Positions 520 to 60,712 of a DNA stretch of 60,712 bases are shown piece after piece. The first letter of the stretch is position 1; each line of letters opens with the position of its first letter. This DNA comes from a virus: IMG/VR virus record IMGVR_UViG_3300045988_137581, positions 1 through 60,712 of that record; one strand, given 5' to 3'. Below the pieces are notes generated by a model, which made no database searches, was not told the DNA's origin, and saw nothing but the letters and a program-made list of their open reading frames with translations. The translations under genes and the position numbers were made by a program.

Positions 520-563
520 TTAGCGGAATGGTTGCAGCGGGGTTCGATTCCCCGCCCGCCGGC
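520..563 (+). ncRNA. tRNA-like acceptor/T-arm minihelix 1 (no D or anticodon arm); alternatively a tRNA 3' fragment or attP-type remnant
   Basis: Perfect T arm: CGGGG (538-542), TTCGATT (543-549), CCCCG (550-554). The 3' strand CCGCCGG (555-561) pairs imperfectly with TTAGCGG (520-526): 4 GC pairs, 2 GU pairs, 1 mismatch. An 11-nt linker separates them. Starts right after the stop of ORF 22..519. Confidence 0.35.
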
Positions 564-585
564 AAAGAACAAAAATTAAACAACA

Positions 586-2664: not shown

Positions 2665-2813
2665 TGCTCTAATTTCTCAGACCCAATTCCCTTTCTAATT
2701 GCAGCTACATAACCATTCGACATTCCACATTGTTTTTCGAACGCCTGTACGCTAATGTCTTGGTGTTTAATGAATTGGTATAGTCTTTCTTTGACTTCCG
2801 ACTCTTTTCCCAT
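2655..2813 (-). CDS. small HTH protein (52 aa, below the ORF-track cutoff)
   Basis: Translated by eye: MGKESEVKERLYQFIKHQDISVQAFEKQCGMSNGYVAAIRKGIGSEKLEQNR. It looks like an XRE-type HTH. Its stop lies 11 nt before the int ATG. Confidence 0.5.
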   Translation of the reverse strand: MGKESEVKERLYQFIKHQDISVQAFEKQCGMSNGYVAAIRKGIGSEKLEQNR

Positions 2814-2852
2814 TGTTAATCTATGTTAAAGTTAGAAATTTCTCTATCCTTA

Positions 2853-2885
2853 TTGCTCTAATATTAGAATTTTGTTCTATCTTTG
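2853..2885 (+). promoter_or_regulatory. Bacteroidota-type promoter: -7 box TATCTTTG (2878-2885), weak -33 TTG (2853-2855)
   Basis: Matches the TAnnTTTG consensus 51 nt upstream of the ATG at 2936. The palindrome TAATATTA (2859-2866) lies between the two boxes. Confidence 0.5.
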
Positions 2886-2935
2886 CACCTGTATTCGATT
2901 ACAAATGCGAGCAAAAATACGAAAAAAAATCTGAT

Positions 2936-3127
2936 ATGGCACTAAGGACAGAATTTCAACAGAAAAAAGAAAGAAAGTACAAGAAGTTATACGATGAATT
3001 CATTTTGCTCTCCTCGGAGGAGGGAGCCTCGATAACAGAGATAACGAAACTGCTGATGAGGAAGTACAACATACACTCCCCCTCAACGATTTGGAAAATT
3101 CGCAAGCAATTCGAAGAAAATAATTAA
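2936..3127 (+). CDS. small HTH protein (63 aa; ATG inside track ORF 2813..3127, which starts at TTG)
   Basis: GASITEITKLLMRKYNIHSPSTIWKIRK is HTH-like. The upstream part of the track ORF is hydrophobic and overlaps the promoter. Confidence 0.5.
   Translation: MALRTEFQQKKERKYKKLYDEFILLSSEEGASITEITKLLMRKYNIHSPSTIWKIRKQFEENN
3052..3092. repeat. 41-bp perfect direct repeat, copy 2
   Basis: Identical to 2624..2664. Here it encodes LMRKYNIHSPSTI of the + strand HTH gene. Confidence 0.9.
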
Positions 3128-3132
3128 CCACA

Positions 3133-3471
3133 ATGGCACACGAGATAGACAGAAAAACGAGATTAATCGACCTGACGGTTGGCGAATTGATGGATGTAAT
3201 TCAAGAAGCCAAGAGAATAATGGTATCGGAACCGAAAGAAGCACCGGAACCGAAAGATGAATACAAATATGGTATAGCCGGAATAGCGAGCCTGTTCAAC
3301 TGTTCGATATCGACAGCGAACCGCATAAAAGCACAAGGCATAATAGACGCAGCCATAAGTCAACGAGGCAGAACAATGGTGATTAACTGTAAAAAAGCAT
3401 TGGAACTTTTCGATGCAAAAAGAGAACAAAGAAAAGCAGAACGAGAAAATGAACACAGCAGCATTAGATAA
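3133..3471 (+). CDS. DUF3853-like / excisionase-like HTH protein (112 aa)
   Basis: YGIAGIASLFNCSISTANRIKAQGIIDAAISQRGRTMVINCKKALELF resembles the Bacteroides mobile-element HTH family. Family name is recalled, not searched. Confidence 0.6.
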   Translation: MAHEIDRKTRLIDLTVGELMDVIQEAKRIMVSEPKEAPEPKDEYKYGIAGIASLFNCSISTANRIKAQGIIDAAISQRGRTMVINCKKALELFDAKREQRKAERENEHSSIR

Positions 3472-3880
3472 AATCAAGAAGCATCTTGTATTTCACGAAG
3501 TAATGAAAGAATTAACCGTCAAAGACGAAAGGGGAGGCTTGCGTTGGAAACGGGTACGTGTAGTAGAAGAAGTCGAGGATAAACCATTTTCAGAGGCAAT
3601 CCTCAACATGGTCGAGAAGCTCGAAAGATACGGATACTCCGTATTGCTAATCGAAGAAGGAGAAGGGGGTGAACCGATATATTGGTACGTCGAAAAAGAC
3701 AACGGCGAAGCAAAATGGTTTCGCAAGTTGCGACACCTCGCCGACGAATACCCGACAGCAGCGATAGACAGCCTCTGTGATTTCAGTGAAATCACGACAA
3801 GTTTCGAGACAAGAGCAATACTCGATTGCACACTGAGAATACTTAATTGCGAACCTGAGAAATCGCAAAGAACGACATGA
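3413..3880 (+). CDS. hypothetical protein (155 aa; alternative in-frame ATG at 3449)
   Basis: ATG ORF that overlaps the previous gene by 59 nt, or by 23 nt if it starts at 3449. Confidence 0.55.
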   Translation: MQKENKEKQNEKMNTAALDKIKKHLVFHEVMKELTVKDERGGLRWKRVRVVEEVEDKPFSEAILNMVEKLERYGYSVLLIEEGEGGEPIYWYVEKDNGEAKWFRKLRHLADEYPTAAIDSLCDFSEITTSFETRAILDCTLRILNCEPEKSQRTT

Positions 3881-3937
3881 TAGCTGATGTTTTTGTTTTG
3901 ATTATTTGACGGCACTGTCGTGAGACAGTAACCCGTA

Positions 3938-3983
3938 TCGGAGGCAGGAGCAACAGAGGGGTTCGATTCCTCTCCTCCGAGCA
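3938..3983 (+). ncRNA. tRNA-like acceptor/T-arm minihelix 2 (no D or anticodon arm)
   Basis: TCGGAGG (3938-3944) pairs 7/7 with CCTCCGA (3974-3980). T arm: AGGGG, TTCGATT, CCTCT (3957-3973). A 12-nt linker replaces the D and anticodon arms. Ends in GCA then AAA. The hairpin ACTGTC-GTGA-GACAGT (3914-3929) lies just upstream. Confidence 0.5.
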
Positions 3984-4040
3984 AAAGCCTGAGAAGCCGA
4001 GAAACGGCAGGTCCGCCAAGAACTTGTTAAAACGGTGGTT

Positions 4041-4097
4041 TTCGCAAGCAGGTTTGCACCCTCGAAAGGGTATCGGTTCAAGTCCGATTTGCGAGCA
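4041..4097 (+). ncRNA. tRNA-like element 3: acceptor plus T arm with two short internal hairpins and no 7-nt anticodon loop
   Basis: TTCGCAA (4041-4047) pairs with TTGCGAG (4089-4095): 6 Watson-Crick pairs and 1 GU. T arm: ATCGG, TTCAAGT, CCGAT (4072-4088). The internal hairpin ACCCT-CGAA-AGGGT has only a 4-nt loop. Confidence 0.5.
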
Positions 4098-4118
4098 AAA
4101 AAATCAAAAAATTGAATT

Positions 4119-4688
4119 ATGGAAGAATACAAAAAATTGAATGAAAAGTACACCGAGTTGAAAACAAAGTACACCGAATTACGGGAACGCTACCTTGAGC
4201 TGCAGCGATATGAGTTTCAAGAGAGAGCAAATTGGAATGTATTATTTGGGACTTGTCAAGATTTGAATATTGTGAATGAGGTGTTCAAGCTCTCACTCAA
4301 AGAGAAAGAAGAAAAATTCGAGAGTGAATTTCCACCAATAGAACAAAATCAAAAGATTATGAAAGACACAGAACAATTACTAACGATGATGTCCAATGTG
4401 CTGGACGCTATCAAGGAAGGACAGAAAGCCTCGCAAGAAGTAGCGAAGCAAGTCGAAGAATTAGCACAACTCAGGAGTAGTGATATGATGTTCCGGTCGC
4501 AGAAGGACGACACCTGTAAGACCCTTGCAGAACTCACCGAATGGCATGCATTCGACGGTGTGCGGAATGTGCTACTATTTAAAGATGGCACAATCCTTGT
4601 GGATAGGTGTGTGAATGACTTGCAAGCACTAATTGAGAATATCAAGGCGTCGCCCATCATTACTTACATTGTATGGAAGCAACTCTAA
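4119..4688 (+). CDS. hypothetical coiled-coil protein (189 aa)
   Basis: ATG ORF with a heptad-like N-terminus (KYTELKTKYTELRERYLELQ). Confidence 0.6.
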   Translation: MEEYKKLNEKYTELKTKYTELRERYLELQRYEFQERANWNVLFGTCQDLNIVNEVFKLSLKEKEEKFESEFPPIEQNQKIMKDTEQLLTMMSNVLDAIKEGQKASQEVAKQVEELAQLRSSDMMFRSQKDDTCKTLAELTEWHAFDGVRNVLLFKDGTILVDRCVNDLQALIENIKASPIITYIVWKQL

Positions 4689-20148: not shown

Positions 20149-23100
20149 TTACTCTATTTCTATTGGCCCGATGAAGGCGAGCCGAGAACCGCAGTACGTG
20201 GCCGAGTTCGAAGATGCGTTAAACGCGCGCGCACAAACGAGACCGAAGTACTCAGACGCATCGCTACCGCCACGACCAACGACACGGCATCTTTCCGCAG
20301 CATAAAAATAACTATCGGTATACCACTGATTGAAATTTGAACTATCTGTAGTAATTCTTGAAGCGATACAATCACAGTAACGACCGAAGCGAACACGACC
20401 AATATTGTAGTATGTCGAGAATGCTTCACAAGCCTGTACAGTACGTTCAGTATCTGTTGCAGGGTCGTAGATATGCCAATATCTATCAACCTTATCCGCT
20501 GTAATCGCAACACCTTTATTCTTTAAGTACGACTTGAAAGATACTACATTTACAGCAACATTGTCAGTCCATTCATAATTGCAGCCTACAAAATTCTGAA
20601 TGCCGAAGATTAAGTTCCCAATACGGCCTCCTCTTGGATATTGGCGAGTTTGATTTCCGTAAGTATTCAACGAGTTTGCCCCTGTTGTGTAACCCGCGTT
20701 GCTACCATAGCCTGCGTATGCCTGTATATCACGTGTCCCGACCAATGCCATTACAAGGTTTGCAATATCCTTGCTCATTTCGTAATCTACTAATTGATAG
20801 CCATTCTTGCGAAACATCGCAAGGTTTTGAAAATCTTTACACGTAAAGTTAGCTATAGCAGGAGCTGACAAATTGGTTACTTTACCATTTTCATCATACG
20901 TCCATTCGGTGCTTGTCTGTGATGTATCTGTACCGACTTTAGTCTTGACACCACTAATAGAGCGAATGCGCATCAGCCCATCAACCGATGCTCCATATAC
21001 ACCGACGAGACGGTCTGTTGTATGTACCCAATCAGGCTCAATAGCTTCAATAGCATTGCTATCGATAGCTATAGTTTCAAGGTCATCTAATCCTGTAAGA
21101 GATGAAAACACAAAACGTTTTGCTCCTTGTGGTACATCACAGAAAATGTACTCGCCGGGCGTGAAGTCAAAAAGCGCATGTGTAACGTGCATATTAAACA
21201 ATGATACGACATTGTCATTCTCGTCCACAAAAGCACCGCCGACAGTACTTGAATTTACGCCGGGGAAACGCACCTGTTTCATGCCCTCAACCTCTATTGA
21301 ATAGGTGTTGTGGTTAGCATTCTCGGTAATGACTAACGGATTTGCAACGCTATTACTATTGATGAATACAGATGACAACTCTTGCAAAAGAATATCGCTC
21401 AGTTTCTTTCTTGTTATCTTGTTGGCAGTACTAATAGGCTTGCCCTCCTGTGATGATGCAAAGAAGTGCTTCTGCTGATTTTTATAGTCGTTCACACCTT
21501 TGTACCAATATGGTTGCAAACGCTTCATAATGTCGAAGCCCTCGCCGGAGGTATCGCTTAAATCGAGTTCTGTTCCGTCCGCATAATAGTTGTAATTATC
21601 ATCACTTAACTGCCGACACTTCATTACTGCTTCATTTGCGTCCCAGATTGCCCTATAAGCATGACTATTTGCTTCTATGCGTGCAAAGTGTCCGCTCTTC
21701 TGATAAGTGTTTCCGAACAAATAGCCTGTTTTATTGTCCATGTTGCTAATGTTAGCACTATCTGCCTCTTCATCATTAAAGATGACCTGCGAGAATTGAG
21801 CATTATAGATATTCAATTCTTTAAAGTAATTTTGCAGTGATAACACCTCACTATCTTCAATAAGTTCCGTCAATATCCATCGTCCTGTAATACCGCTACA
21901 CTGTCCGATTTCATCGTATGCGTTGCCATTCGCATCAAGACCAATACAGCCGCTATTCTTGATACTGCGGAGCATATCAACGCTTGCCGATACATTAACA
22001 TTAGGAATACGTATTGTTTTTAATGCACTTGCCTCTGTAATCTGCTCCAATAAAGTCATGGTATTGATATATGGACAGTTGTTTAGATACACCTTTGCCA
22101 CCTTATCCATACCTGAAATGGTCAGTCCTCCGGGATAGGTTAATTTCGGAAGATTGTTAAGGATAATCTCAGTCATTGTATTAGGCAATGATAGTGTGTT
22201 GATAGGCGATGTCTCTGCAAGTGTGATAGTCGATAGAGATGTATTATCGGCAAACACAGCTACCAAGCGAGGACACTTAGATGCGTTTACCGTCTGCACC
22301 TCTGTATTGCGAATATCAAGTATCGTTAAGAACGGCATATCACCCAAATCAAGATTGGTCATATAACCTGTGTTGCCCGGTGACATCGTCCAATCTACGT
22401 GTGTCTCTCCTCCCAAATACAACTCCTGTAAGAGAGTCATTTTTGATAAGGTGTTACCGAATTGTGGGTCAATGCTTATTTCTTTCAAATCAATCATGCT
22501 CATTCTGTCTGCCTGATATATGTAGAGCATAATGTTCTCTCCGTGTTGGAAATTGCTGAATACGCCATCTTCACCTGCTTGCAGATAGATACCCTCAGTG
22601 ATATTACCGCTATCGTTACCGATACCGAAATATCCTGTCTTGGCAGCTCTGAAACGTATTACTGCACCGTCTTTTGCACCTATACGACCACCTATATAGC
22701 CACTTTCCGCCTTAAAGTCGCCACAACGATAGTAACCGTCTCTGATGCGCCAACGTTGCTCGATAAATGCAGGAAGAGAGGTTAAGCCGAGGCCTTGCAG
22801 AGCGTAGAAATAAATATCGCTATATCCTGTGTACTTGATATATTTGCGTTCTCCGTCAAAACTCGAAACGACTTTTTGCCATTTTTTCAGACGCTCACTA
22901 ACAAAGTAGTGATATGCTCCTTTTGGTGAAAATGGACCAGCACCTATACCAAGTGTATCAGGGAGTGAACGCATAGTATCAGCGATAGAAAGCAATGTAA
23001 TCGTGTTTCCGTTTTGGTCTATATCCATTGTCTGCTGACCCCTGATATTGTTCCAAAGCACTGAACCACGTCCTGCGTATGCACTATTTGTTAAGTCTCC

Positions 23101-26100
23101 CGGGTCAACTTCTGGGTCGATAGTCTGTCCTCCGTCGTTGTCTTTTCCGTTACAGGTATCGCAGTCATACACTTTATTACAATACATCCTTCGGGCGTTC
23201 ATACCATTCGCACCGCTATATACACCGTTTTTAACACTACAACCGTCCTCCAAGAACCACATCGGCTGCATATTCTTCGCCTGCTGGTCAACGGCAGCAA
23301 GATAGTCAGTAAACAGATAGTATGCAATAAGAGAATACGGATTAGCATACTTCCACATCTGCGTTTTCCAAATATTCTGCCATGTATCGGCAAGTTCCTC
23401 CTTGGAATAATCGCAACTATTACAGAATACAAGCATCTGATAAAGGTCGTATGGCACTTTGCGACCCATTGCCAAATCCACTTGTAATTGGTCATCGTCA
23501 ATCATGCACTCGAAATAGCGTGTCCACATCGGATATGTAGGCTGTCCGAGTTTCAGCTTGGTTACCCAAGATGCTTCGGCGGTGGTTGGCTCCATCATAT
23601 CGGCAATGCTACCAATGCCCTGCCACCAATTCAATCCGTCATAACTGAGCAGTTCGTAACCGCTCACAGGATTAAGCACTTTGCCTGTAATCTGCCACTT
23701 GCCGTTTACCTGCTTCATTTCGCCTTCTTGTGCTGTCCATTCGCCGCTTTCATATGCCATAAAGCGGTAGTTTTCTCCACAATAGAGCGACAACAGGTAT
23801 AGTTTATTCTTATTTGTAGTATTATCATTTTTGAAACGCATTTCTATCTCATCAAGCGTTTCGCCCTCTGTTCCGAAGTACTCAACAAATTCGCCATAGT
23901 TCACACAGCCTAAGTTGTACCCCGGTGTATTCTTAAAGCCAAGAGCAATTTGCTCGCCCTTATCCTCCTTCCAATTACCTTTTGCATGGAACCATGCATC
24001 TGTAAGGCTCTCCATCGTAGCACGAAATGCCGCAATAGGGTGATTGGCGGTAGAATGGTTCATCTGAAGCCCTGTCAAGTGAACATCTCCTTTTGTCCAA
24101 GTGCCGTCAAAAGCTCTCTGTGCCGGTGTCATATAGTTGCTGCCAAGCGCACGATAGGTGTCATTCATCATGTCGCAAACGCCGCAGTCGTTCGCCCCTG
24201 AACTATCAGAGTAATCCACTTTTACAGTGATAATGCTTACAGGTATTGAGTTTTCTTCCACTTTAACATATCCGAGTTGCATCAAGTTGTATGAAATCAA
24301 TGCATCGTCATTAGTGTATTCCGGATAAACAGGGGTAACAGCCCACCCACTATTCTTCCGCAAATAGAAGCGGTCATTCTTGATAGGCCGTTTTGCCGAT
24401 GTAGTACCTTGTCGTCTCCATTGAACATTTATCGCTTTAAAGCTACGCCACGGCATTGTCGGGTGGTAATAGTACAGCGTACAAGAAAACTTCTTGCTTG
24501 TGTCAATATCTCCGTCAAACGTATCAAATGTTTGTTGGTCTGCCACAACTACATAATACGGAATACCTCTCTCTGTTAGAGCGTCAAGTGTTGGTCTATT
24601 CTGGCTGTCAAGAACATTTTCTTTGTCAAACTCGGCAATCATGGCTGTGGTATCAGTAAGTTTGCACAAGTAGTTCTGAAAGGCTTGCGACCATTCATAG
24701 TGGCTGTCGTATGCAAGTACGTAATAAAGGTATAAGTCGCCGTCTGTCCCATTGAATTTAATAGTTTTACTGCTGAGGATTGCACCGCTGTTGCTGATGT
24801 AGCCGATACAACCGACCTCCTCACCGTCTAAGTACATCTTGATGCAAGAATAACTGCTTCCTCCACGAGTTACATAGATTGTGGACGGCTCAACAACTAT
24901 CGCCATAGTATGTTTCTCGCCGCAACGAAAACGCCGTTCTACTAATGCAGGCTGTCCTGTCTTGCAGAAGATAGTAGCACTATTGCCACACACATAGAAA
25001 CCAGCTCCGGTATCGGGGTCATAACACTCAATGAGTTTTGCATTCGCTGCTTTTATGTTCTTCGTTGCAAATGCGAATTGAAAAGCACATCCTGTGGTAC
25101 GTTCTACTGCTGAATTGCCAAATGGAGTATAGTCTGTTATCTCTGCCGTTACGTTCTCTGCTATTCTCAAACAACGCTCTCCAAGGTAGTCCACAAAACC
25201 ATTACTCGAATAGTTCGAACCATGCACAACCATTTCCACGCCATTGTTTTTAATAGTGTGGTCGCTCTCGCTGTTGCTACGGTTTGCAAAATCAAATCCG
25301 AACAAAGCACCGTCCTTTATGACAGCCCCGATAGCACTACCCATAACAGTTACTTTAATCTCATTTGTTGATACACTGCCGCTCTCGGCGTGTACAATAA
25401 TACTCTCAGTGCCATCAGTACGGTAGCCCTGTATCTGTTTGTTTACCTTGATTGTTTCAGCAATCATAGCATTTACCGAAGTTACAAGTTCATTACCATA
25501 ATACACATCGATGGGCGTTTCTGTCTTACCCGATGTGTATGCTGCAACCTCGACACTTAGGCTATCGTACAGACGTAAAGTACCGTTGTTGGTATCATTG
25601 AAACGGATAGCGACAATCGGAGTACTATTGTTTGCATCAACACACATGATAGTAGAGTAGATAGTGTTGCCTCTTACTCCCGATTTTATCTCCACTCCAT
25701 AGATACGTACAGGATAGGCACCATGCAAAAGCCTTTCTCCGCCACCAAACACATCGCTCGGATTTACAGAAATACTCTTAGTATAACTGTCGCTGACTGT
25801 AGCCTCGCCCAACTTCTTCCATTCGCCGTTATAGAGCATTTCAACGACTGCAAGTATAGAAGATGAGTTATTTGGGAACTTATAGAACTGACCTATGTTT
25901 TTAGACGAGCCGCCAACAGTCAATGCGGTACTGCTTGTGTAGTTGAGTGCCATAGGCTGCTCTACAGTTACATCAACAGCAACAATAGTAATAGCTTTCT
26001 TCTTTATGTTGCCGTCAGCATCACTTGCCTGCACAAAGAAACTCTTTGATGCTGCACTGCTGAAGTATTCAGTAAAGTTTAATTGAAATTTGTAATCAGT

Positions 26101-28092
26101 GGCACTTGCAGAACCAACTTCATTCATGTTTTCGCTGAATAATGTCAATCCAGTACTTGCATCAATAATCGCAAGACTTCGTATAACCCCCAATACCTCG
26201 TTACCATCAGGGTAGCTTACGCTTCTCAAAGCAACATTTACAAGAATATCAGAGCCGAATGCCACTGTAGGAGCAGCTTCCTCGAAATATATAGACAATG
26301 TGCTGCTCTCACTTGACCCACCACCTCCTGTGTTCTTCGGTATCTTGATTTGCACATCGAGAAGTTGAGTGCCGTTGAGGTTTACAGCTTTGTAATAAAT
26401 GTAATCCTCATCGCTTTCCTCATCAAAACCTCCTATTGCCTTTTGTTGCATCTCGTACGCCCCACCTGTCGAAAGAGCCTGTTTCCCGTTTTCTTCCGGA
26501 ACGTCTGATGTCTCAACTGAACTTCCACCATTAGCCGAACCGAACGCAACCCAAGGCTTTTCATCCGCAGGGTTGATGTCTGAAACCTCACGTGTAAACT
26601 GATATGCAAGCCATATAGGCGCACCGTTGCTATCAATGTCAGCTGTTTTAAAAGTCAGCACAACTCCACTCTTGAAGTACGATAATCCGCTCTCTCGCTC
26701 CAACTCCTGAACCGCCTGAATAGCTGTACCTAACGAATACTCAATATTATCGCAAAGTGAGTTTACATTGATTGTATTACCAATGCTTTCTCCATTTGTT
26801 CCGAAGTCAGTCCAATTGCTCTCTGTTGCCCAATCTGTAGTGTTTGTCCATTGCTTCGACTGCCAACCATTTTCAGAAAGGAACGTCAGCACAACCCCTG
26901 GTATCATAATAATCTCTGCACCACTGAGGTTTGCTATGCGGTCAAGTGCTACTGCAAAAGAAATTTCTCTATCCTTCAAGCCAAGCAACTCATTGACATT
27001 AACAATGCTTCGACTAATTATCTGTTGGGCTGCTATAGCTTGTTTAGTGTTGAGGTTAGAAATTTCATTCTTTGCAGTTTCCATTTCCTCTTGTAACAGC
27101 TTTCCATCGCTACCGGGGAAAGCTGTACTATCTGTATAACCCAAAGCAAGGTCAGAACCAATAGAGACAAGTGTGTCTCCACTCCAACGATAAGTAATGT
27201 TTTTTGACTTGTCCACATAAACTTTACCACTTTCCGGAATAACACCATTATTAGTTGCTGTTCCCCAAATGTTGCTGTCGCTCCACGATGGATAATAATA
27301 AGTTACAGCTTCCTCGTTATTATCTTCTGTTACTGTATGGGCAAGAAGGAATACATTATATTCCTTACTGTACACAACACTACATTGAGGGTCTGTTGAA
27401 TATAATTCTGATTGAGATTGTTGAATTACGATGTTTTCAACTGTTTTCTCAAACTCAATGACATCATCTACAAAACTTGGTAGGTAGTTTGCAGGTATCT
27501 TCCTATCACTATCCAATGGAGCAAGTCCACCTGCTGCACCTTTAGTGTTTTTTAACTCGGTAAGTTCATCACCAACTGCATTAGCCTTATCTTTCGCTTC
27601 GTTAGCGGTAGCCTCAACGCTATTGGTTTGAGCTTGAATAGAGTTGATATTGTTGCCTTGTGATGTCAGTTGCGTATCCTGTGCATTGTTTTTATCCTCA
27701 ATATTTTGAATATTTTGTTGCATCAAAGATATATCTCTTTGCAACTCTGCAACTGCTTCGTTATACTGCTCACTGTCAATAGTCGGATTGCCTCCTTCTT
27801 CTCCTGTGGCTACCCATTCACCGCCGTCACCGATATAAATCGGTCCGGGGAGAGTTCTGCCGACAATAGCCCACCACCCATCGTGAGGCAATGGGTAGGC
27901 TTCTCTCAATTTTTCTATTGTGGTGAATATACCTTTATTTGCACCTTTGATGTTCTTGGCATCAAGCCAACCTTCAACTTTTAAATTCCCTTTGAGTTGA
28001 GTGCTTCCTTGAACGGTTGCTTTGCCACCAACAGCTATGTTGCGACCAACGGAAACATCACCGTCAATCTGTGTTGCCTTTATTGAACTCAT
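20149..28092 (-). CDS. giant tail fibre / receptor-binding protein (2647 aa)
   Basis: The N-terminus is fibre-like (GAAGGLAPLDSDRKIPANYLPS after a coiled coil). Further along are a ConA/LamG-like block, a leucine-rich-repeat block and a lectin-like C-terminus. The start forms an ATGA overlap with the upstream gene. Confidence 0.8.
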   Translation of the reverse strand: MSSIKATQIDGDVSVGRNIAVGGKATVQGSTQLKGNLKVEGWLDAKNIKGANKGIFTTIEKLREAYPLPHDGWWAIVGRTLPGPIYIGDGGEWVATGEEGGNPTIDSEQYNEAVAELQRDISLMQQNIQNIEDKNNAQDTQLTSQGNNINSIQAQTNSVEATANEAKDKANAVGDELTELKNTKGAAGGLAPLDSDRKIPANYLPSFVDDVIEFEKTVENIVIQQSQSELYSTDPQCSVVYSKEYNVFLLAHTVTEDNNEEAVTYYYPSWSDSNIWGTATNNGVIPESGKVYVDKSKNITYRWSGDTLVSIGSDLALGYTDSTAFPGSDGKLLQEEMETAKNEISNLNTKQAIAAQQIISRSIVNVNELLGLKDREISFAVALDRIANLSGAEIIMIPGVVLTFLSENGWQSKQWTNTTDWATESNWTDFGTNGESIGNTINVNSLCDNIEYSLGTAIQAVQELERESGLSYFKSGVVLTFKTADIDSNGAPIWLAYQFTREVSDINPADEKPWVAFGSANGGSSVETSDVPEENGKQALSTGGAYEMQQKAIGGFDEESDEDYIYYKAVNLNGTQLLDVQIKIPKNTGGGGSSESSTLSIYFEEAAPTVAFGSDILVNVALRSVSYPDGNEVLGVIRSLAIIDASTGLTLFSENMNEVGSASATDYKFQLNFTEYFSSAASKSFFVQASDADGNIKKKAITIVAVDVTVEQPMALNYTSSTALTVGGSSKNIGQFYKFPNNSSSILAVVEMLYNGEWKKLGEATVSDSYTKSISVNPSDVFGGGERLLHGAYPVRIYGVEIKSGVRGNTIYSTIMCVDANNSTPIVAIRFNDTNNGTLRLYDSLSVEVAAYTSGKTETPIDVYYGNELVTSVNAMIAETIKVNKQIQGYRTDGTESIIVHAESGSVSTNEIKVTVMGSAIGAVIKDGALFGFDFANRSNSESDHTIKNNGVEMVVHGSNYSSNGFVDYLGERCLRIAENVTAEITDYTPFGNSAVERTTGCAFQFAFATKNIKAANAKLIECYDPDTGAGFYVCGNSATIFCKTGQPALVERRFRCGEKHTMAIVVEPSTIYVTRGGSSYSCIKMYLDGEEVGCIGYISNSGAILSSKTIKFNGTDGDLYLYYVLAYDSHYEWSQAFQNYLCKLTDTTAMIAEFDKENVLDSQNRPTLDALTERGIPYYVVVADQQTFDTFDGDIDTSKKFSCTLYYYHPTMPWRSFKAINVQWRRQGTTSAKRPIKNDRFYLRKNSGWAVTPVYPEYTNDDALISYNLMQLGYVKVEENSIPVSIITVKVDYSDSSGANDCGVCDMMNDTYRALGSNYMTPAQRAFDGTWTKGDVHLTGLQMNHSTANHPIAAFRATMESLTDAWFHAKGNWKEDKGEQIALGFKNTPGYNLGCVNYGEFVEYFGTEGETLDEIEMRFKNDNTTNKNKLYLLSLYCGENYRFMAYESGEWTAQEGEMKQVNGKWQITGKVLNPVSGYELLSYDGLNWWQGIGSIADMMEPTTAEASWVTKLKLGQPTYPMWTRYFECMIDDDQLQVDLAMGRKVPYDLYQMLVFCNSCDYSKEELADTWQNIWKTQMWKYANPYSLIAYYLFTDYLAAVDQQAKNMQPMWFLEDGCSVKNGVYSGANGMNARRMYCNKVYDCDTCNGKDNDGGQTIDPEVDPGDLTNSAYAGRGSVLWNNIRGQQTMDIDQNGNTITLLSIADTMRSLPDTLGIGAGPFSPKGAYHYFVSERLKKWQKVVSSFDGERKYIKYTGYSDIYFYALQGLGLTSLPAFIEQRWRIRDGYYRCGDFKAESGYIGGRIGAKDGAVIRFRAAKTGYFGIGNDSGNITEGIYLQAGEDGVFSNFQHGENIMLYIYQADRMSMIDLKEISIDPQFGNTLSKMTLLQELYLGGETHVDWTMSPGNTGYMTNLDLGDMPFLTILDIRNTEVQTVNASKCPRLVAVFADNTSLSTITLAETSPINTLSLPNTMTEIILNNLPKLTYPGGLTISGMDKVAKVYLNNCPYINTMTLLEQITEASALKTIRIPNVNVSASVDMLRSIKNSGCIGLDANGNAYDEIGQCSGITGRWILTELIEDSEVLSLQNYFKELNIYNAQFSQVIFNDEEADSANISNMDNKTGYLFGNTYQKSGHFARIEANSHAYRAIWDANEAVMKCRQLSDDNYNYYADGTELDLSDTSGEGFDIMKRLQPYWYKGVNDYKNQQKHFFASSQEGKPISTANKITRKKLSDILLQELSSVFINSNSVANPLVITENANHNTYSIEVEGMKQVRFPGVNSSTVGGAFVDENDNVVSLFNMHVTHALFDFTPGEYIFCDVPQGAKRFVFSSLTGLDDLETIAIDSNAIEAIEPDWVHTTDRLVGVYGASVDGLMRIRSISGVKTKVGTDTSQTSTEWTYDENGKVTNLSAPAIANFTCKDFQNLAMFRKNGYQLVDYEMSKDIANLVMALVGTRDIQAYAGYGSNAGYTTGANSLNTYGNQTRQYPRGGRIGNLIFGIQNFVGCNYEWTDNVAVNVVSFKSYLKNKGVAITADKVDRYWHIYDPATDTERTVQACEAFSTYYNIGRVRFGRYCDCIASRITTDSSNFNQWYTDSYFYAAERCRVVGRGGSDASEYFGLVCARAFNASSNSATYCGSRLAFIGPIEIE

Positions 28093-38881: not shown

Positions 38882-41800
38882 TTATAGAGCATCTATCAAT
38901 CTCACCTTTTTTACTACCTGCTTCTTCAACTCGTTGAGTTCTTTCTTTAACTTATCCTCTTCTTCCTTGGTTGTTGCCTCTTTCAACATTTTCTTGCTCT
39001 TTTTAATCTTGGAATAAAGATTCTTGTCGTCGAATGCAGCCAAATGAGCATATTCTTTCGACTTTTTTATTTCTTGCAATCTCTTAACCGCTTTTTTGTC
39101 GCCTTGGGCTTTATCTTTTTCATAGGCTTTTATCAAACGCATTGTCTCCTTATATTCTTCCTCTAATTGAAAGAACTCGTTATTCAAAGCTCTATTCTTC
39201 GTTCGTTCGTCTCCATTGGTTACGAACCTATTCACAAGAGGTATGTTTCGCCAATCAAAGTCTTTCCCAACCCCTGCCTCATACAACTTAACAAGTTGAT
39301 TTGGTAACGTCCAAAAGCCACCTCCATACGACCTTAACAAGTACTCTATTTCCGCAGGATTCAAATCTACCTTTCCTTTCTCATATCTTGTACCACCGCT
39401 CATTTCATTCAAATAAGCACACAAATCGACAATCTTAGTATTCGCATTCTTATACGCTTTCGTCCATTCCGGCATATTTTTATTGAATGGAGTGTCCTTA
39501 TATATCGGTAATCCGTACCATGAACGATTTTTCTGCACTTCAAGCATTGGCTTTATCGCACTCGGAGTAAACGGAGCTAACAAATCAAGCCCATCTTTAT
39601 TGTTTGTCTGCCCCTCCATTATATCGATAGGAGTAAGCTTCGATATTTGAGAAGCAAACTCCGCAACACTCAATGGCTCATTGTGGAACATTTTACCTCC
39701 TAACAATTCCCCCATTCCATAAATGGCTTGATATTCGATAGGCAAAGGTACTTTAATCCAACTCTTACCCGGACCCGGGAATACGAAGTTATTTCTCCTT
39801 ATGGTTTCGGGCAAGTCATAATAGCTGCCTCTTTTATCATCATCTCCGTCATCTCCATCACTAACCAATTTCTGTATAAACATTCCGAGAACGAACAATG
39901 CAGATGCAACACTTAACGACCTTCCGGGGTGTTGCGACAAAGCTTTACCGAAGTTACCGAACGTACCCTGTATCGCTGCATTCCAGAAGATAAACAGCGT
40001 ACGTCCGGCACCGCTGACGAAAGCACCGCTCTTGCCCAATAGAGTTTGACCCTGCGACTTCAAAAAACGGTCTCCCGCTCCTTTCTTGTTGAAGTTTACA
40101 CTTATTTCTTTTGCGTCGAATATCGAACGACCTATATCTCGTCCCAAACTGCGAGAGGTCATAAACGCAGCGAAACGAGCTTTCGTTTCGACAGAACGCC
40201 CTATTTCATCAAGCCAATTAGCGAAGTGTTTTCTCCATTCCTCAAAAGGCATCTTTTTATTCAACGTCTTTAATGCTTTCTCAATCTCTTTCTTATGTTC
40301 CTCCACGTCGAGCATTCGCCTGTAACCGGTCTCGCCTCCGTTGTCAAGGAATTGTTTGAACATAGCTTCCACTCTGTTGTTTGTATCAAGTGTACCTTTT
40401 CTGTACTTGGCAAACAACCCTTTCAACGACCACGCATTAACGAAGTAGTTTAACGCAAAACGTCTCCAATAATCAGCACCCTCTTTAACGAAAGCCATAC
40501 TGTTGGAATAGATTAAATCTCGCAAGAAGTTACTTGCAATGAAGTCCGGTTGAAGTGTGGTATATAATGCACTCAAAGTCCTGTTAACGTCTCCAACCAA
40601 TGAAATAATCGAACCGATAGAACCCCTCATATCGTTATTATCGGGATTTGTCAATCCATTTAACGCTTGTGCTGCTCTCGGATTTCCGTTGATTGTAATG
40701 ACTACATTTTTACCTCTACGCTTTACGATTACTTGATGCTGGTGCAAATCGCTATTATTCACAACCCTGTATGGGATATTGTCAGCCTCTCTGCCTCTCT
40801 TGTATTTTTCAGGCTCTTCTTCTGCCAATTGCATGAGTTTGTCATTGAACTCGGCTAATTTCCGCTCAACCTCTTCCGGAGTATCGCTCTCGTTCAATGT
40901 TGGCAACAACGGTTTCCATTCCCCGGCAACATCATCATATTGCAACCACAAATCGCTAATACTATATGCATCACTCGGGTGGTTGAGAACAAATGTCAAG
41001 AAACGATTTTTAACGAACCTATTCCTGTTACCCTGCATAATCGTACTCTCTGCCATTGATTGCAGATAAGCAAGAGGATTATCCGCCTTTGACCTACGAC
41101 CGTTCGCCTTCTTAATCGGAGCATTGAATGTCCCGTGGCGTTCGTTCAGGTACGCATACTCTTCATCGGCAGTTTTCTCGTCAAAACCTCTCAAAGGTAT
41201 GTAGTAATTGTACATACTCGATATAGCCTCGTAAGTCTCCTTGCTTATAAGACCGCACTCCAACGACTTGGATAAGATTGCATCATTTATCTCTTTCAAT
41301 AAATCCCATATAGGCTCGGTCTCGTGCATACTCTCGTATTCCGCCACCATTCGTTCCGCTTCCAACTCGGCTTCCGCAACGTCTTCTATTCCCGTCAATG
41401 CTGTAAGTCCGGCATAATCCCTTTGCCTGTTCTTCTCAATCATCTTTTCCAACTCCTCCTCGGATTTTCCTGATTTTTCGAGTTTAGACTTCGCATCTCG
41501 TTCAGCCATATAAACATTTCTTTCCAAGCCGTGCTTAGCCATCATGTATTCTATCAGTTCATCTCTTTCGTCGGCAGTTGTTGCCAATTTTGAAATAACT
41601 ACGTTCAACGGTTGGAAGAAAGTACGGTTGAACGCCTCCACCTCTTTTTCGTTAATACTCGACAGAGCGTTCTCTCCTGTATAAGCATTCTCGAAAGTAG
41701 GCACATCTGCAATATTGAAATCTTTCTTACCATTCGCCTCATACACAGACCCCATAAGCTCCTTCAATCCAAGCATACTATCCTGCATAGCCTCCTTGAA

Positions 41801-44800
41801 TTGATACATGCCTCCCTTTACTCTTTGGTTGTATATATGGGCAGCATACGCACGGTCTTTGACAACGAATTCGTTGTCAGGGTCGATATCGCGGAACATC
41901 AACTCGTCTTCTTTCTCGGCAGCCTTGTCCGAAAACTCTTTCGTTTCAGCATAGTCGCCCACCTTCAAGTCATACTGCTTTGCTATGTCCTCCGCCTCGC
42001 CCAAAATACTTTTATACTTACCCGGAGAAACGAGGTTCTGATAACTCCTCCACAAAATATAGCGAAGCTCATTATCGGAGAGAGCAACACCGCCGAAACC
42101 ATCGAAGCCAATCTTATGAAGCAAATCCATGAAAAGCTGCTTTATCTTGCTCCACCACCCCGCATTGAGGTTCTCGAAATTGGTATTCTCCGCAAGAGAT
42201 GCAAGATATTCCTCCGTAGCCGTTCGGAAATCCCAACCGTTCCTTGTTGCAAGAGCAACAATCTGCTCTCTTACCTGCATGTCGGCATTTGTAAACACAT
42301 TGTCAAGGAACGTATCAAAGTGTTCTCCGAACAACTGACGCAAACCATAGTGAGCTACCGCCTCGTGCAACAACGTCTGTTCGGCATCGAATGTGCTTGT
42401 ATGGTTAGGAATAACAATCGTTATCTTGCCCGTACTCTTACTGTAAAAACCTTTCGCACGCTTTTTCTTACCCTCCAAAGCATCTGCATCCGTAACAATC
42501 TCCACATTACCAAGATGCAGTTTCTCTGCAAGTTCATTGACCCTGTCAACCATTCTTCGACGCTCTTTCCTTGCAAACTCCTTGCGTTGGAACTGCGTGC
42601 GAAGAGGTCTACCTGCCAACTTCGACCACGGGTCGTTCTCAAACGACAACTCATCATCAGTGTATGATGCAACACCATCACGAGCAGAAATATCCGTGTT
42701 TATAGGATTCACTTCATTTAATAAATCCCTCATTACCCTATCCGCAACCTCTGTTGCAGAAGTATAATGAATATGTAAGAAGTCTGCAATACCTTTCCAA
42801 AACTTCTCCAAAGCTCGTTTCACTCGCTGCAAAGCATTTACCGCTTCTGCTTTCTCGAATACACTGTTTTCTCCCTCTGTCGCTTTGCGTGTCTCTTCTC
42901 TCAAACGTTCTGCACCTCGTCTTCCAGAGTACAACGCTATTACCTCCTCCGCAATCTCATCATCACTCTTCAATTCGGGATAACGCTTCGTTACCTCTTC
43001 CCAAACAGACGTGCCTTTCATCAACCCCACGACATTATTCCACTCTTTCGCATTACCGTTACGCAAAGCCTCAGCCCACAAATGGGCATACTCGTGGATA
43101 GGAGTTTCGGTATTTGCAATTCTCGTGTCGATGTATATCTTGCCATCGACAGTGAAGCCGTAAGCCTCGCCGTTCGCACCCTTGAAGAACCGAACATGGT
43201 CAACTATCTGTAAATCCCTTTCATTGAAGACAACATAGTTTTTCGCACCATCGGCACGACCGCCACGCAGATTGTCCGCAGGATATTTGATGCCGACATA
43301 ACCGAGAGAAGCAAGTAGTTCGCTCGCCTCTTTTTCTCCTATATATAAACTGATAGTCCTGTATAGAGTACGTCCGTTATAAACTTCGTCGAGGGAATCC
43401 GACAAATCTTTCTCCAACATCTCGTTTTCTGTTTCATCATCTATTCTTTTCTCACGCATGATGAATTCACCAACAGCCCCCATGTCGAAATCCTTTGGTA
43501 AAGGCTCGTTCCATTCCAAGTAGTTATTTCCGTTGTCCTCAGGGATTTCTACGGTATATAGGTGGCGTATCCGTCCTTGGCGTGAACGCTCCTCATTATA
43601 TTGTTCCTCCCTCATTGCTCTAAGAGCATCAAGTGCCGCTTTGTTTCTTTCAATAGCCGCCTTACGAAGAGCGGTCATTGTTTCGTCTTCTTTCTCGTTT
43701 CTCAGTATATTTTCATTTATTTTTATATTGGTTTCAAGGTCAGCGATAGCTGCTTCTTTTCGCTGTTCAAAAGAAACAGCTTGCAAATTATAGTTTTCTT
43801 GGTGTATAATAGCACCAACCGCCATAGAAACAGGAGTCGCTTTTCTACTACTTCTTCTTTTTTCCTCTGCAATTAGAAAACTTGTTTTTGCGTAATATTC
43901 GCCGATACCTTCTACCTCTGTAACATACGTACCCCAACCGTACGCTTGCTGCCCTTCACCCTCGCCCATATATGAATGGTCGAAAGCCTCGAACTCCGCA
44001 CCGCTGCCATGATACACTCTGTGTTCACGAAGATTATCGGCATTCACCTCTTGCCTTTCCGCAAGCCCCGTAGTATCTTTGAACTCGCCGCTATACAATG
44101 CTTGCTGAATGGAACGGACAATCTCAGCCAAAGGCTTACCCTCTGCCTTACGCAACTTAATAGCGTCATAGTAATACTCGACAATGTGAGCGTCTCCGTC
44201 ATTTGTCATACCGGTATTCACCTTTGGCGAAACAACAATACTGATTCCGCTCAATTCGTTTCTGCGGTCAAAGTTTGAGACCTTTGCATTGTGGTCTGCA
44301 AGGCGTATCGTAACGACCTTTCCGTTCTTTGTCTCGAATGTAGCGTATTCACTCTTGCTTCCATCTCGTGTTGCACCGAGAGCTTGGGCTACTTTACCTA
44401 CAAATGTTTTCGGTTGAGAAACACTTTCTGTTAACTCATTTGCAAGTTCTTCAATATTTTGTAGTATCTTTGCACCATCTGCACTTGAAATGACAGTTAA
44501 TGACCTCGGAGTTGCTCTGAGAGAGGCGGTTTCAAGTGCTCTTTTCTTTTTAGCCTGTTCCTTTGCATTGCCATTAGCCATATCGAGCACTCTTTGACCG
44601 ACCGCAGGGTCGTCGATAACCTCTATTCCGCTCCTGCGAATACGGTCTATAACAGCATCTCGAAGAACTTTCTCCTCTTTCGTCAAAGGAACTCTGTTTT
44701 TATCTTCCTTTCCGAACTTGATGCCTAAATCGCTTTCAACATTCTTGGCTTCAATGAATGGTACAGCTTCGACAAAAGTATCACCGTTCTCATCTTGAAA

Positions 44801-47800
44801 CTCTATGTGATGATATTCGCCATCCAAGCCCGAATATTTATGTCCCGGTTTAGGAACAAAACCACGTTCAATCGCATGTTTTGCACCGCTTGAAGCACTT
44901 ATCAATTCTCCACCATAATACTTTTCCAAGCTATCTATCAATTCATAAGCACCAAAACTGTATGACGAATACTCATTAAGCAGGTCGAATAAATCATCTG
45001 CATTTATACCGTTAAAGAATCTGTCGCCCCCTCTGAACCTGATATCGTCGGTATTTGTTGGGTTTTCAAAATCTTTTACTATCTTTGCAACAGAATCCAA
45101 ATCCAAATAGTCCACGTCAGCGAGATTGGTTCGCTGTTGGTCTATCAGGGTTTGGATTTTTTCTTTGTTCAGATATTCAGCTTTTCCTTGTACTATCCAG
45201 TTAAGCCATTTCGCATTGGTTTTAGGGAAAACGCCTCTGATACTTGAAATATCCAAACCATTTCGTTCTTGATTGAAATGTACGCCTACAAGGAATTGTT
45301 TCCCGTTGTGTTCGATACCTATGATAACATTCTTGGCATTGTCACCGTAGCGGAATACAGCCAACGGATTATTCAACTCCTTTACAAGGTCTTTGACTTC
45401 CGAAATATCAAATATGTGATTTTCCTGTGATGCCTTCTTTGAAAGTCGTGTAGAGGACAGTTCGATAGGGAGATGTGGGAAACCTGCACTTTGCAATATA
45501 AAGCCCGGCATACCTATTTGGTAAATATGTCCCTGTGGCAATGTACCGTCAATCTGTTGTTGTAGTTCTTCGTTAAACTTCTCGTTGACAGTTTCAATAG
45601 TATAATCTTCATCGCTTCTATACAGCGTATCCCCATTGTTCTCTTCCTCGTCCTCTTCCGTGCTTGTTATGCCGTCTGCCGTCTCGACGGAAGCGTCCAT
45701 ATCCGCATACTTAGCCTCCTTTTCCTCCAACTCTTTCTTCATCAATTCGGAGTACTCTTCGTATTGAGCCTGTGCCTGCTTCAATTCTTTCTCATACTCG
45801 AACGGTTTGCCCTCTCTCGAAAGCATTTGCTCCAATTCAGCCTCATTATGTCTCTTGCTTCGTTGTGCAGCTTCCAACTGTTCCGAAAAATCTTTACCCG
45901 TAAGTACGTTCGTGGTTATATCCTCCACGGCATTGCGGAGCAGGTTCTGTTTAACAGGTGTGTTCTCTATGCCGAGTTCCGGACATGAATAAGTCATCTT
46001 CCTTTCCGCCTGTGTAAACAGTGTTCTTCCCTCGCTTGCCGTCTTTCTCGACAAGTCGGTTGTAACGACAAAATCGAAATCACCTATCCTGATGGTCAGC
46101 TCTCGTCTTTGGTCTCCCGTTATCTCGCCGCTCTTTATCTTCTGCATATCGGCGAGGGCTTTCTTGTTATAGTCCTTGAAGAAGTCCTCCATTGCCTCGA
46201 CGGACGCAAAGCGTTGTTTGCCGACCGAAATCTCACCGAACCTGCCATTCTGGAACGCACTCTGCACAGCTTTCAAATAAGAACCATTGTCCTCGATACG
46301 TTGTTCCGCCTCCCTGATAAGCCCTTTCAGTTTTGGTTTCGCATTATGAATATACGTTTGGTCTGCCTCATACTGCTTCTTACGACTTGCATACTTACGC
46401 ATATTCTTCTCGGCATTGTTTTTCAGCATTGCATACTCGCTACCAGAGAGCTGGGCAATAGTATCTCCGAACACATCCTCCTCTTCTTCAAGAACACGGT
46501 TCACCATACTGTTTTCCATCATCTGCCTACCCCTCATGATGCTATCCGCAATAGCACCCTTGGTTTTTAGACGTTGGTATGCAGTAACGTCCAAACTATC
46601 CTCGACCCCGAAACGCAATACACGAACAGGCTTACCCATCTCCTTATGTATGTTGCCTTGTCGCAAAATACGACCGTTCCGCTGAGTGTAATCCATCGGA
46701 CGATTCGGAGCATCGAGATGAATCAAAGTGTGCAAGCGTTCCTGAATATTCACACCCGTACCGAGAGTAAAGGTAGAACCGAGTAAGACACGCACCTCGC
46801 CATGATTGAACTTATCAAAGATTGCAGCTTTCTTCTTGACTGTCATTCCGGACTTTATCACCACAATCTCGTCAGCCGGAACACCCTCCGCAATAAGCTT
46901 TGCACGAATATCCTCGTACAGGTTGAAGCCGCTTGCCTTGTTCTGATAGTTGTCTGCGAATATCGCAACAGTACCATTGTAGTCGGCAGTCTCTTTGAGA
47001 GAACGCAACGTTTGTCGCACAGCCTCATTCGTCTTGCTGTTCGGGTCGTCCTCTGCGTCAGCCTGCACCAATCGGGCATCGACGGCAGCAGCCTTGGCAA
47101 TACCGTACATGGTAAGCGGAATATGACTGTTCGCTTTTTTCTCTTTGCCGCTCATGTTATCGAACCTTTCGAGTTCAGACTTGACGAACTTCATTACGCT
47201 ACGCAAAGCACGTGTCTGCGGCAAATAGATGTCTTGTGCCTTTCCTCCCTCTAATTCGGGTATCTTCTCCATCACCTCCGGAGCTTCCTCCGTGAGGACG
47301 GTATCGGACACACCAGACCATATACGAACCAATTCAGGAAGATTGACATATCCTGCAAAACGGTTATTCTCCTTGAACTTGCCGCTTGTTGTGAACTCCA
47401 ACATCTGCTGAATGTTGCCGAAGTTACGGACAAAGTCGTCAAAGTAATAAATGCCGTACTCTTTCATGGTGTCGGCAGGCATAAGATAACGCATGAACGT
47501 CCAAATCTCTGCGGCAGTGTTACTGATAGGCGTACCCGTTGCGAAGACAACATTACGACCGTTATTCTTTTCCATTACCGCCTGAGCTTTCAAGAACACG
47601 CCTTGCGACTTCTTGCTGTATGACGGGTCGACACCCTTGACACCACGTTGCATGGCAGTGGCAAAACCGAGATGCTTATACTCATGAGCTTCATCGACAA
47701 GCAAGGCATCGATACCCATATCATCGAAGTTCTCCACATCATCAGTCATGCGGTCGAGCATTTCCATCGCTCTAACCTCTGCATTCTGCTTTGCTACGGC

Positions 47801-60613: not shown

Positions 60614-60712
60614 AAAAACAAAAAACAAGAAGTCATGAAAACACAAATCGAAGAACTTGAGACAATCGCACAAGATGTAAGAACCAGATTCGCATACACA
60701 AGTCGCGGAGAA
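60614..60712. repeat. Second copy of the 99-bp end overlap
   Basis: Identical to nt 1-99. Confidence 0.9.

Follow-up and report, generated by a model that had tools for sequence, protein, structure and literature searches.

Anticodon-less tRNA-like minihelices ahead of start codons in operons of temperate Bacteroidota phages, candidate signals for transcript processing

We analysed a 60,712 nt stretch of viral DNA (IMG/VR record IMGVR_UViG_3300045988_137581, positions 1 to 60,712, hereafter the window), in which a 238 nt gap between the open-reading frames (ORFs) at 3413–3880 and 4119–4688 holds two short tRNA-like elements, minihelices A and B, each built of an acceptor stem and a T arm and both lacking a D stem and an anticodon arm. 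These elements are RNA structures under selection which are read on the + strand, and they recur across phages of Bacteroidota, within operons and at a short distance from start codons. The reading we favour, with moderate confidence, is that they are cis-acting signals for the tRNA-processing nucleases of the host, directing either the cutting of the operon transcript or the protection of its ends.

The + strand of the gap contains four structured parts, a hairpin (E1), minihelix A, a linker (L) and minihelix B, which lie between a U-rich block and an A-rich leader (coordinates in Table 1). Minihelix A has an acceptor with 7/7 pairs, a 12 nt linker and a T arm of four Watson-Crick pairs and one G-U pair under a TTCGATT loop, whilst B has six Watson-Crick acceptor pairs, a TTCAAGT loop on a 5 bp stem and an extra 12 nt hairpin (CCCT-CGAA-AGGG) at the variable-arm position. 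Both end in GCA followed by an A-run, and neither of them has a G3-U70 pair or an encoded CCA. Much of this had been described in the initial annotation of the sequence, including the loops and stems of both T arms, the pairing and linker of A and the GCA ends; two details of B required amendment. Six of its acceptor pairs stand, the seventh that had been proposed (G4048-T4088) clashes with the 5 bp T stem, the alternative being an optional U4041-G4095 pair. Similarly, of two mini-hairpins assigned to B the one at 4059–4070 is real, whereas the first (CAGGTTTGCA) is homologous to the plain 11–13 nt linker of other copies. The gap had also been described as free of ORFs; mechanically called minus-strand ORFs do overlap it, but no stop-free frame is common to the homologues. 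A coding function on either strand was ruled out, as almost all frames of the window and of its homologues are interrupted by stops; just two are open, one minus-strand frame in L005 and a different frame in L052, and neither is shared with any other sequence. E1 folds at −13.2 kcal/mol (z −3.45) and B with a z-score of −2.7, L folds no better than shuffles. The U-rich block and the A-rich leader have complementary sequences (TTTTGATT / AATCAAAA; 3886–3908 vs. 4098–4113) and are paired in the minimum free energy fold; the block could sequester the translation start, although its sequence is of low complexity. The motif CCTGAGAA occurs three times in the window, two of these (3854–3861 and 3988–3995) flank the start of the RNA region, and in relatives, too, it lies in linker L and where the upstream gene ends.

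Relatives were collected as homologues of the gene downstream of B, from one IMG/VR contig and from ENA/Logan assemblies, mostly from the human gut and including Hadza samples (individual loci are numbered L001, L002 and so on). Every homologue found carries the E1-A-L-B region, with the end of the RNA 20–25 nt before the start codon. Among 16 distinct minihelix copies, 98.2% of pair cells are standard pairs, and compensatory changes on both sides were seen in eight of the 11 pairs, including all six acceptor pairs (an earlier version of this count used a hand-made alignment of 12 copies). None of 500 shuffles reached the observed pairing and covariation values, registers slid by 1–3 columns paired at 50–70%, and G-U pairs appeared solely in the + strand reading. 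The initial annotation had proposed in advance to judge the elements by the conservation and covariation of their stems in relatives, and by this measure they hold up. For example, the acceptor of B is TCGCAA/TTGCGA in the window, TCCCAA/TTGGGA in L001 and TCCAAA/TTTGGA in L002. In L001, L002 and L053 the acceptor of A is split by an insert and still covaries (CGGAGGGG/CCCCTCCG vs. GGAGAG/CTCTCC). Across the 16 copies the T loop is conserved, unlike the acceptor, whose sequence drifts freely. B lacks its extra hairpin in L005, L051 and L052, where it fits the plain minihelix model, and near-identical copies of A are found upstream of other genes in L051 and L053. The contigs of the relatives also contain further single minihelices ahead of other genes.

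The remaining parts of the region are conserved in different ways. The E1 sequences of L001, L002 and L004 are wholly different from one another, yet with that of the window these four unrelated sequences share one shape, an outer stem around an inner GNRA hairpin with a GCGA or GUGA loop; E1 is like boxB in form only. Linker L is nearly identical in sequence in the window, L001, L004 and L053, and its GCCAAGAAC core is kept in all relatives, even where L is 27 nt long (L051). All relatives contain a T-rich block homologous to the U-rich block of the window; it lies upstream of E1 in L004, L005 and L052 and within minihelix A (~45 nt) in L001, L002 and L053. The L004 region (2741–3000) is a mosaic, its E1 and A resemble those of L005 and L052 and its L and B those of the window and L001, from which we conclude that recombination has taken place within the RNA locus. 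On its upstream side the RNA also marks the point at which homology between the window and all relatives breaks off. We rejected the notion that the RNA is far more conserved than its flanks, the core RNA sharing 85–94% identity and the conserved part of the downstream gene 83–96%.

The elements retain the acceptor stem of a tRNA, its T stem and loop (UUCRANY) with G53-C61, and a short linker with GG; acceptor and T stem together stack to 11–13 bp. The first acceptor pair is nearly always U1-A72; the GG is invariant and lies three to four bases past the acceptor, in a plain linker of 11–13 nt in copies other than B; and the discriminator is followed by an invariant C and then by A's (N-C-A-A-A). 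Fuller tRNA-like elements in Porphyromonas phages have the D-loop sequence AAAUGGUA, which the linker motif (C/A)AUGGU matches; we therefore read the GG as G18G19, which probably contacts the T loop to close a tRNA elbow. Insertions are freely accommodated at the position of the anticodon arm, which holds 0 nt in A, the 12 nt hairpin in B, ~45 nt of U-rich sequence in L001, L002 and L053, and 16 vs. 66 nt in Porphyromonas phages. An acceptor/T-arm minihelix with a D-loop analogue is sufficient for RNase P, for the CCA-adding enzyme and for some aminoacyl-tRNA synthetases; judged by this established knowledge of substrates, the retained features appear to be the processing parts of a tRNA and the discarded one the decoding part. 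All copies share their setting, they lie on the coding strand, between genes and inside an operon, 15–35 nt 5' of a start codon, and are followed by an A-rich leader.

The strict T-arm motif GGTTCRANNCC was found three times in the window against 0.6 times in shuffles, in all cases on the + strand and with 5/5 T-stem pairs. A covariance model built from relatives only, with the window sequences excluded (R2), scored minihelix A at 56.4 bits (E 1.2e-11) and a further copy at 521–567 at 26.7 bits (E 2e-4), with no other significant match over 60.7 kb. The initial annotation had considered A and B not to be decodable tRNAs, with which our searches agree, as no standard tRNA or tmRNA model fits even when flanks are included (ARAGORN, Rfam). 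The T arm (5 bp stem, UUCRANY loop, G53-C61) is stacked on a 7 bp acceptor as in a canonical tRNA, the D stem and anticodon arm of the cloverleaf are missing (ARAGORN, Rfam RF00005). ARAGORN detected zero tRNA or tmRNA genes in the window and Rfam at gathering thresholds gave no match there, including to the C4 and Y RNA models; at E ≤ 10 the sole Rfam match was a 17 nt T-arm stretch, and the beta_tmRNA model covers the T arm only (10.4 bits vs. a gathering score of 84). A bacterial Y RNA (YrlA-like) is not indicated either, given the absence of an Rfam match and of a Ro-like domain in the 30 window ORFs scanned. Neither the region nor L004 had a blastn match among 50,697 phage records, and exact and degenerate DNA patterns in IMG/VR returned the L001 contig only, or nothing. 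A search of JGI metagenomes and GTDB genomes with the pattern GGTTCGAYTCC-N12-42-CCGCCAAGAAC returned 43 loci; 41 were rejected as chance matches beside real tRNAs or within coding sequence, the exceptions being L016 and L028.

The copy at 521–567 is a single minihelix with a weak acceptor (four Watson-Crick pairs, one G-U pair and one mismatch). L063, which encodes a homologue of ORF 586–1131 with 51% identity, has a minihelix at the same upstream site (L063:4920–4966), its acceptor differs in sequence and pairs perfectly (UGCUGU/ACAGCA). In two loci with 94%-identical homologues (L064:5931–6000 and L066:1312–1381) the minihelix is replaced by a plain hairpin with a UUCG loop, AGCAGG-GU-GGG-UUCG-CCC-GU-CCUGCU, ahead of the same A-rich leader.

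The elements extend well beyond the immediate relatives of the window. L004, L005, L051 and L052 are the left ends of Mu-like transposable prophages, with a gene order of repressor, ner-like gene, RNA, a 668-aa MuA-like transposase (phrog_310) and an AAA+ protein. A single minihelix lies 25–30 nt 5' of the transposase gene in L004, L005 and L052. In L004, L005 and L006 the bacterial genes end 0.9–2 kb upstream of the RNA and the flanks differ (YchF vs. MatE). In L005 the ~600 nt between bacterial gene and repressor (1300–1900) are G-rich, repeat-laden, non-coding DNA with GGGGGGACAGTT present three times, probably the prophage left end with transposase-binding repeats. Relatives of the transposase recovered by tblastn (25–31% identity) all belong to phages of Bacteroides, Porphyromonas and Elizabethkingia. 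The Elizabethkingia phage TCUEAP3 has a minihelix 15 nt 5' of its MuA gene, consisting of TCCAA, a 12 nt linker with GG, TCAGG-TTCGAGT-CCTGA and TTGGA, then G-CAA. In five Porphyromonas gingivalis phages a tRNA-like element lies 16 nt 5' of the transposase gene and is followed by A-CAAAA; in these elements the acceptor, D and T arms align to the Rfam tRNA model with 43–50 bits, the anticodon arm is unalignable, being 16 nt long in four of the five phages and carrying a 66 nt insert in the fifth. The annotated start of the transposase coding sequence overlaps the element in L058 and L060, and is probably wrong. In Hankyphage (Bacteroides phage p00) an annotated tRNA-Arg occupies the position of E1-A-L-B, after the ner-like gene. 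The elements of the P. gingivalis phages and Hankyphage are probably evolutionary relatives of the minihelices. Near-complete tRNA-like elements thus grade through minihelices into bare hairpins, and all of these occupy conserved operon positions shortly before start codons. Our literature searches found no description of such elements in Bacteroidota phages, nor of those in P. gingivalis phages and Hankyphage. This set of minihelices in temperate Bacteroidota phages is so far undescribed, the principle of a tRNA-like processing signal is already known.

We favour transcript punctuation on several grounds, among them that the parts retained are those recognised by RNase P, RNase Z and the CCA-adding enzyme, in elements placed inside operons and close to starts, and the same position recurs across distant phages, directly 5' of a MuA-like transposase gene. 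The elements would be transcribed within polycistronic operons, each folding as an acceptor/T-arm mimic whose D-loop remnant GG closes the elbow. RNase P would then cut flush at the 5' side and RNase Z perhaps after the discriminator, splitting the operon transcript at defined points and leaving the upstream cistron with a structured 3' end. Either cuts on both sides would free the minihelix and leave a 20 nt A-rich leader, or the 5' cut by RNase P would occur alone, in which case a flush 5'-terminal helix may shield the downstream mRNA; for A-L-B, where two minihelices stand in tandem, this cutting would in addition set free the conserved ~60 nt L. Bacterial RNase P cleaves operon mRNAs and the precursors of phage regulatory RNAs. 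The initial annotation had already suggested processing punctuation, an idea with which the coding strand, the operon-internal context before start codons and the retained processing parts agree.

Several points weigh against this proposal. The enzyme that acts, the cutting itself and the effect on expression are what we infer from the arrangement. The first acceptor pair is U-A where G-C is usual, and the base at −1 varies. Work on Bacillus subtilis indicates that the invariant C after the discriminator could be an anti-determinant of RNase Z, RNase P would then act alone. At the site before ORF 586–1131 a stable stem-loop without tRNA features may suffice, as in L064 and L066, and simple punctuation does not explain E1 or the conserved linker L.

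The plain UUCG hairpins, with the same leader as the minihelix, also argue for an effect of structure without any cleavage, in which a stable helix keeps an A-rich start that has no Shine-Dalgarno sequence free of pairing, or blocks exonucleases, and the tRNA-like detail reflects ancestry instead of function. The distance to the start codon, which is always short, fits this equally. A generic hairpin would not however retain a T loop, G53-C61 and the linker GG, and these are kept across phages of Bacteroidales and Flavobacteriales with transposases of 25–31% identity; the T loop is fixed where the acceptor sequence drifts freely. We regard a purely structural role as unlikely. We are somewhat more doubtful still of a dedicated class of anticodon-less mimics acting in trans, either as CCA-tagged decoys for toxins or through the excision of L as a regulator of lysis-lysogeny or transposition.

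Two specific forms of action in trans can be weighed on their own evidence, and both seem improbable. In the first, the released minihelices would be stable small RNAs, perhaps CCA-tailed, serving as decoys or sponges for proteins that bind acceptor ends or the elbow, such as tRNA-targeting defence toxins, nucleotidyltransferases or modification enzymes. Their origin in an early operon, the retention of the acceptor/T-arm/elbow module and the presence of several copies per genome would suit such a role; on the other side, a mimic of a single target tRNA would not be expected to vary so widely in its acceptor sequence, the copies are few and tied in position to gene starts, and the scanned window ORFs revealed no nearby gene for a tRNA-related or anti-defence function. 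The second, no less doubtful, treats A-L-B as a delivery cassette, with two mimics excising L (loop CCAAGAAC) as a small regulatory RNA in the manner of C4 of phages P1 and P7. The near-invariance of L in the window, L001, L004 and L053, the survival of its core in a 27 nt L and the precedent of phage regulatory RNAs matured by RNase P are in its favour. Against these, a search of the window for antisense targets of L gave 10-mer matches at chance level (the relatives being partial loci only), L folds no better than shuffles and single minihelices occur elsewhere without L.

A nut- or put-like antitermination site, or another transcription-control site with E1 as an element that binds a protein or the polymerase, is very improbable: the early operon, the location after the repressor and cro/ner-like genes and the shape of E1 kept in four sequence versions would be expected of it, but there is no + strand terminator-like site downstream up to 5200, single minihelices occur without E1, and the tRNA features would be left unexplained. 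Least probable is that the elements lack an RNA function and are attP cores, or remnants of tRNA genes from past integration and recombination; a tyrosine recombinase gene does lie 1.3 kb away (1946–2644) and the elements sit at mosaic junctions between relatives, yet the 5' and 3' acceptor strands covary when an attP core would not need the 5' strand, three copies are present in one phage, and in the integrated Mu-like prophages (L004, L005 and L006) the same elements have differing host flanks with junctions 0.9–2 kb away, so that the initial suggestion of attP-type tRNA mimics is not supported.

The genomic setting is that of a temperate phage. The window has a 99 nt terminal direct repeat (1–99 and 60614–60712) and is therefore a complete circular genome of ~60.6 kb. 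Its genes include those for a P22-like portal and a terminase, a small tyrosine recombinase and a recombination module of the SbcC/RecT type, besides two giant ORFs. The latter lie in the structural/late region on the − strand (38882–58720, 6612 aa, and 20149–28092, 2647 aa). The host almost certainly belongs to Bacteroidota, judging by the Bacteroides-type −7 boxes in the sequence and by genes without Shine-Dalgarno sequences. No promoter box belongs to E1-A-L-B itself, which lies ~1 kb into the rightward early operon, and nothing resembling a terminator was seen on the + strand from the promoter to 5200; the same −7 box is found upstream of the equivalent operons in L001, L002, L004, L005, L052 and L053. 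The 521–567 copy sits within a second + strand operon which ends at a terminator hairpin (1689–1734). This perfect 20 bp hairpin has A- and T-runs on its flanks and separates the + strand operon from the integrase operon; it resembles a terminator acting in both directions. ORF 4119–4688, downstream of B, also lacks a Shine-Dalgarno sequence, as is typical of Bacteroidota; it encodes a 189-aa protein with no match in Pfam, PHROG or PDB, 11 relatives among 1.8 billion representatives and an AlphaFold model (pLDDT 60.8) too poor for a fold search. Its ~80-aa N-terminal extension (MEEYKKL..., window 4119–4358) is a separate gene in L053 (L053:3983–4345), preceded by its own minihelix and the same leader, and there the core protein starts right after B. 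The upstream gene (3413–3880) and the SbcC-like gene have no close relatives in IMG/VR, and genes for tRNA-related enzymes or for anti-defence were absent from the 30 window ORFs scanned.

Table 1 Positions of the minihelices and associated features in the window and, where a locus number is given, in relatives.
Feature	Position	Strand	Details
U-rich block	3886–3908	+	GATGTTTTTGTTTTGATTATTTG; 5' of structured region
Hairpin E1	3909–3936	+	Outer 4 bp stem 3909–3912/3933–3936 around 6 bp hairpin 3914–3919/3924–3929; GNRA loop GUGA
Minihelix A	3938–3983	+	Acceptor TCGGAGG 3938–3944/CCTCCGA 3974–3980; linker 3945–3956, GG 3947–3948; T arm 3957–3973, AGGGG 3957–3961/CCTCT 3969–3973; G3981, C3982, A3983, then A-run
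Linker L	3984–4040 (~57 nt)	+	CCUGAGAA 3988–3995; small hairpin 3996–4008; stem 4013–4017/4034–4038, its loop opening with conserved AAGAAC 4018–4023
Minihelix B	4041–4097	+	Acceptor TCGCAA 4042–4047/TTGCGA 4089–4094; linker CAGGUUUGCA 4049–4058; extra hairpin 4059–4070; T arm 4072–4088, ATCGG 4072–4076/CCGAT 4084–4088; G4095, C4096, A4097, then A-run
A-rich leader of downstream gene	4098–4118 (21 nt)	+	Unstructured; ATG at 4119
Third minihelix (single)	521–567	+	Between ORF 22–519 and ORF 586–1131; acceptor 521–526/556–561; linker AAUGGUUGCAG; T arm 538–554; then GCAAAG
Bacteroides-type −7 box	2878–2885	+	TATCTTTG (TAnnTTTG); rightward early operon with E1-A-L-B
Divergent Bacteroides-type −7 box	2919	−	
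Bacteroides-type −7 box	~60575	+	TATCTTTG; by-eye reading; heads operon with 521–567 minihelix
E1 counterparts	L001:3724–3756; L002 ~2750–2785; L004 ~2781–2812		Directly 5' of minihelix A
U-rich block in relatives	L001 ~3800–3838; L004 ~2762–2795		
tRNA-like elements, P. gingivalis transposable phages	L056:2425–2495; L058–L061		Unannotated
Hankyphage (Bacteroides phage p00) 'tRNA-Arg'	L057:1767–1850		84 nt; over-long unalignable anticodon region

The copy at 521–567, the linker GG, the GNRA hairpin E1 and the wider family in Bacteroidota phages go beyond what had been recognised initially. If transcript punctuation is their role, temperate phages of the dominant gut phylum would shape their early operon mRNAs via the tRNA-maturation enzymes of the host, with the punctuation placed right before key genes such as the transposase, a mechanism known from organelles and, in our searches, undescribed for Bacteroidota phages. 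Some annotated phage tRNA genes, for example the tRNA-Arg of Hankyphage, would then not be decoders. Being short, modular and portable, the elements could become useful parts with which to tune the expression of operons in Bacteroides. They lie at mosaic junctions as well, and may aid the exchange of modules between unrelated phages.

Of known systems, the t-elements of plant mitochondria are close in form, being non-decoding combinations of GGTTCRANYCC and an acceptor stem within long transcripts beside ORFs; mRNA 5' and 3' ends occur at their borders and RNase P and RNase Z have been proposed to act there (Forner et al. 2007, PMC1920247). The window elements share these sequence traits, but they reside in a bacterial virus and not in an organelle, have no sequence homology to t-elements and are further reduced, with neither D stem nor anticodon arm, at a fixed 15–35 nt before start codons; their processing is a prediction. 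The elements of P. gingivalis phages and Hankyphage occupy the same operon positions on the same strand and have the same T loop, the N-CAAAA trailer is common to the P. gingivalis elements and the window and is absent from Hankyphage p00. Unlike the window elements, which match no tRNA model, they retain a D arm and score 43–50 bits against Rfam tRNA, above its threshold. C4 RNA (P1/P7) and CI RNA (P4) are phage RNAs cut from operon transcripts by RNase P of the host by virtue of tRNA-like features, as the minihelices may be. C4 is an antisense RNA that acts via loop sequences and has no canonical T arm; the window elements do not match the Rfam C4 model, and no target was found in the window. 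Minihelix model substrates and the tRNA-like domain of tmRNA likewise combine an acceptor stem, a T arm and a D-loop analogue, whereas the window elements have neither the tag frame nor the pseudoknots of tmRNA, and are natural elements inside mRNAs instead of stand-alone genes. Finally, mascRNA of MALAT1 is a tRNA mimic by which RNase P and RNase Z set the ends of a longer transcript, the role we propose for the minihelices, although it belongs to a eukaryotic nuclear long non-coding RNA, has a cloverleaf with an anticodon-like stem and is unrelated in sequence and context.

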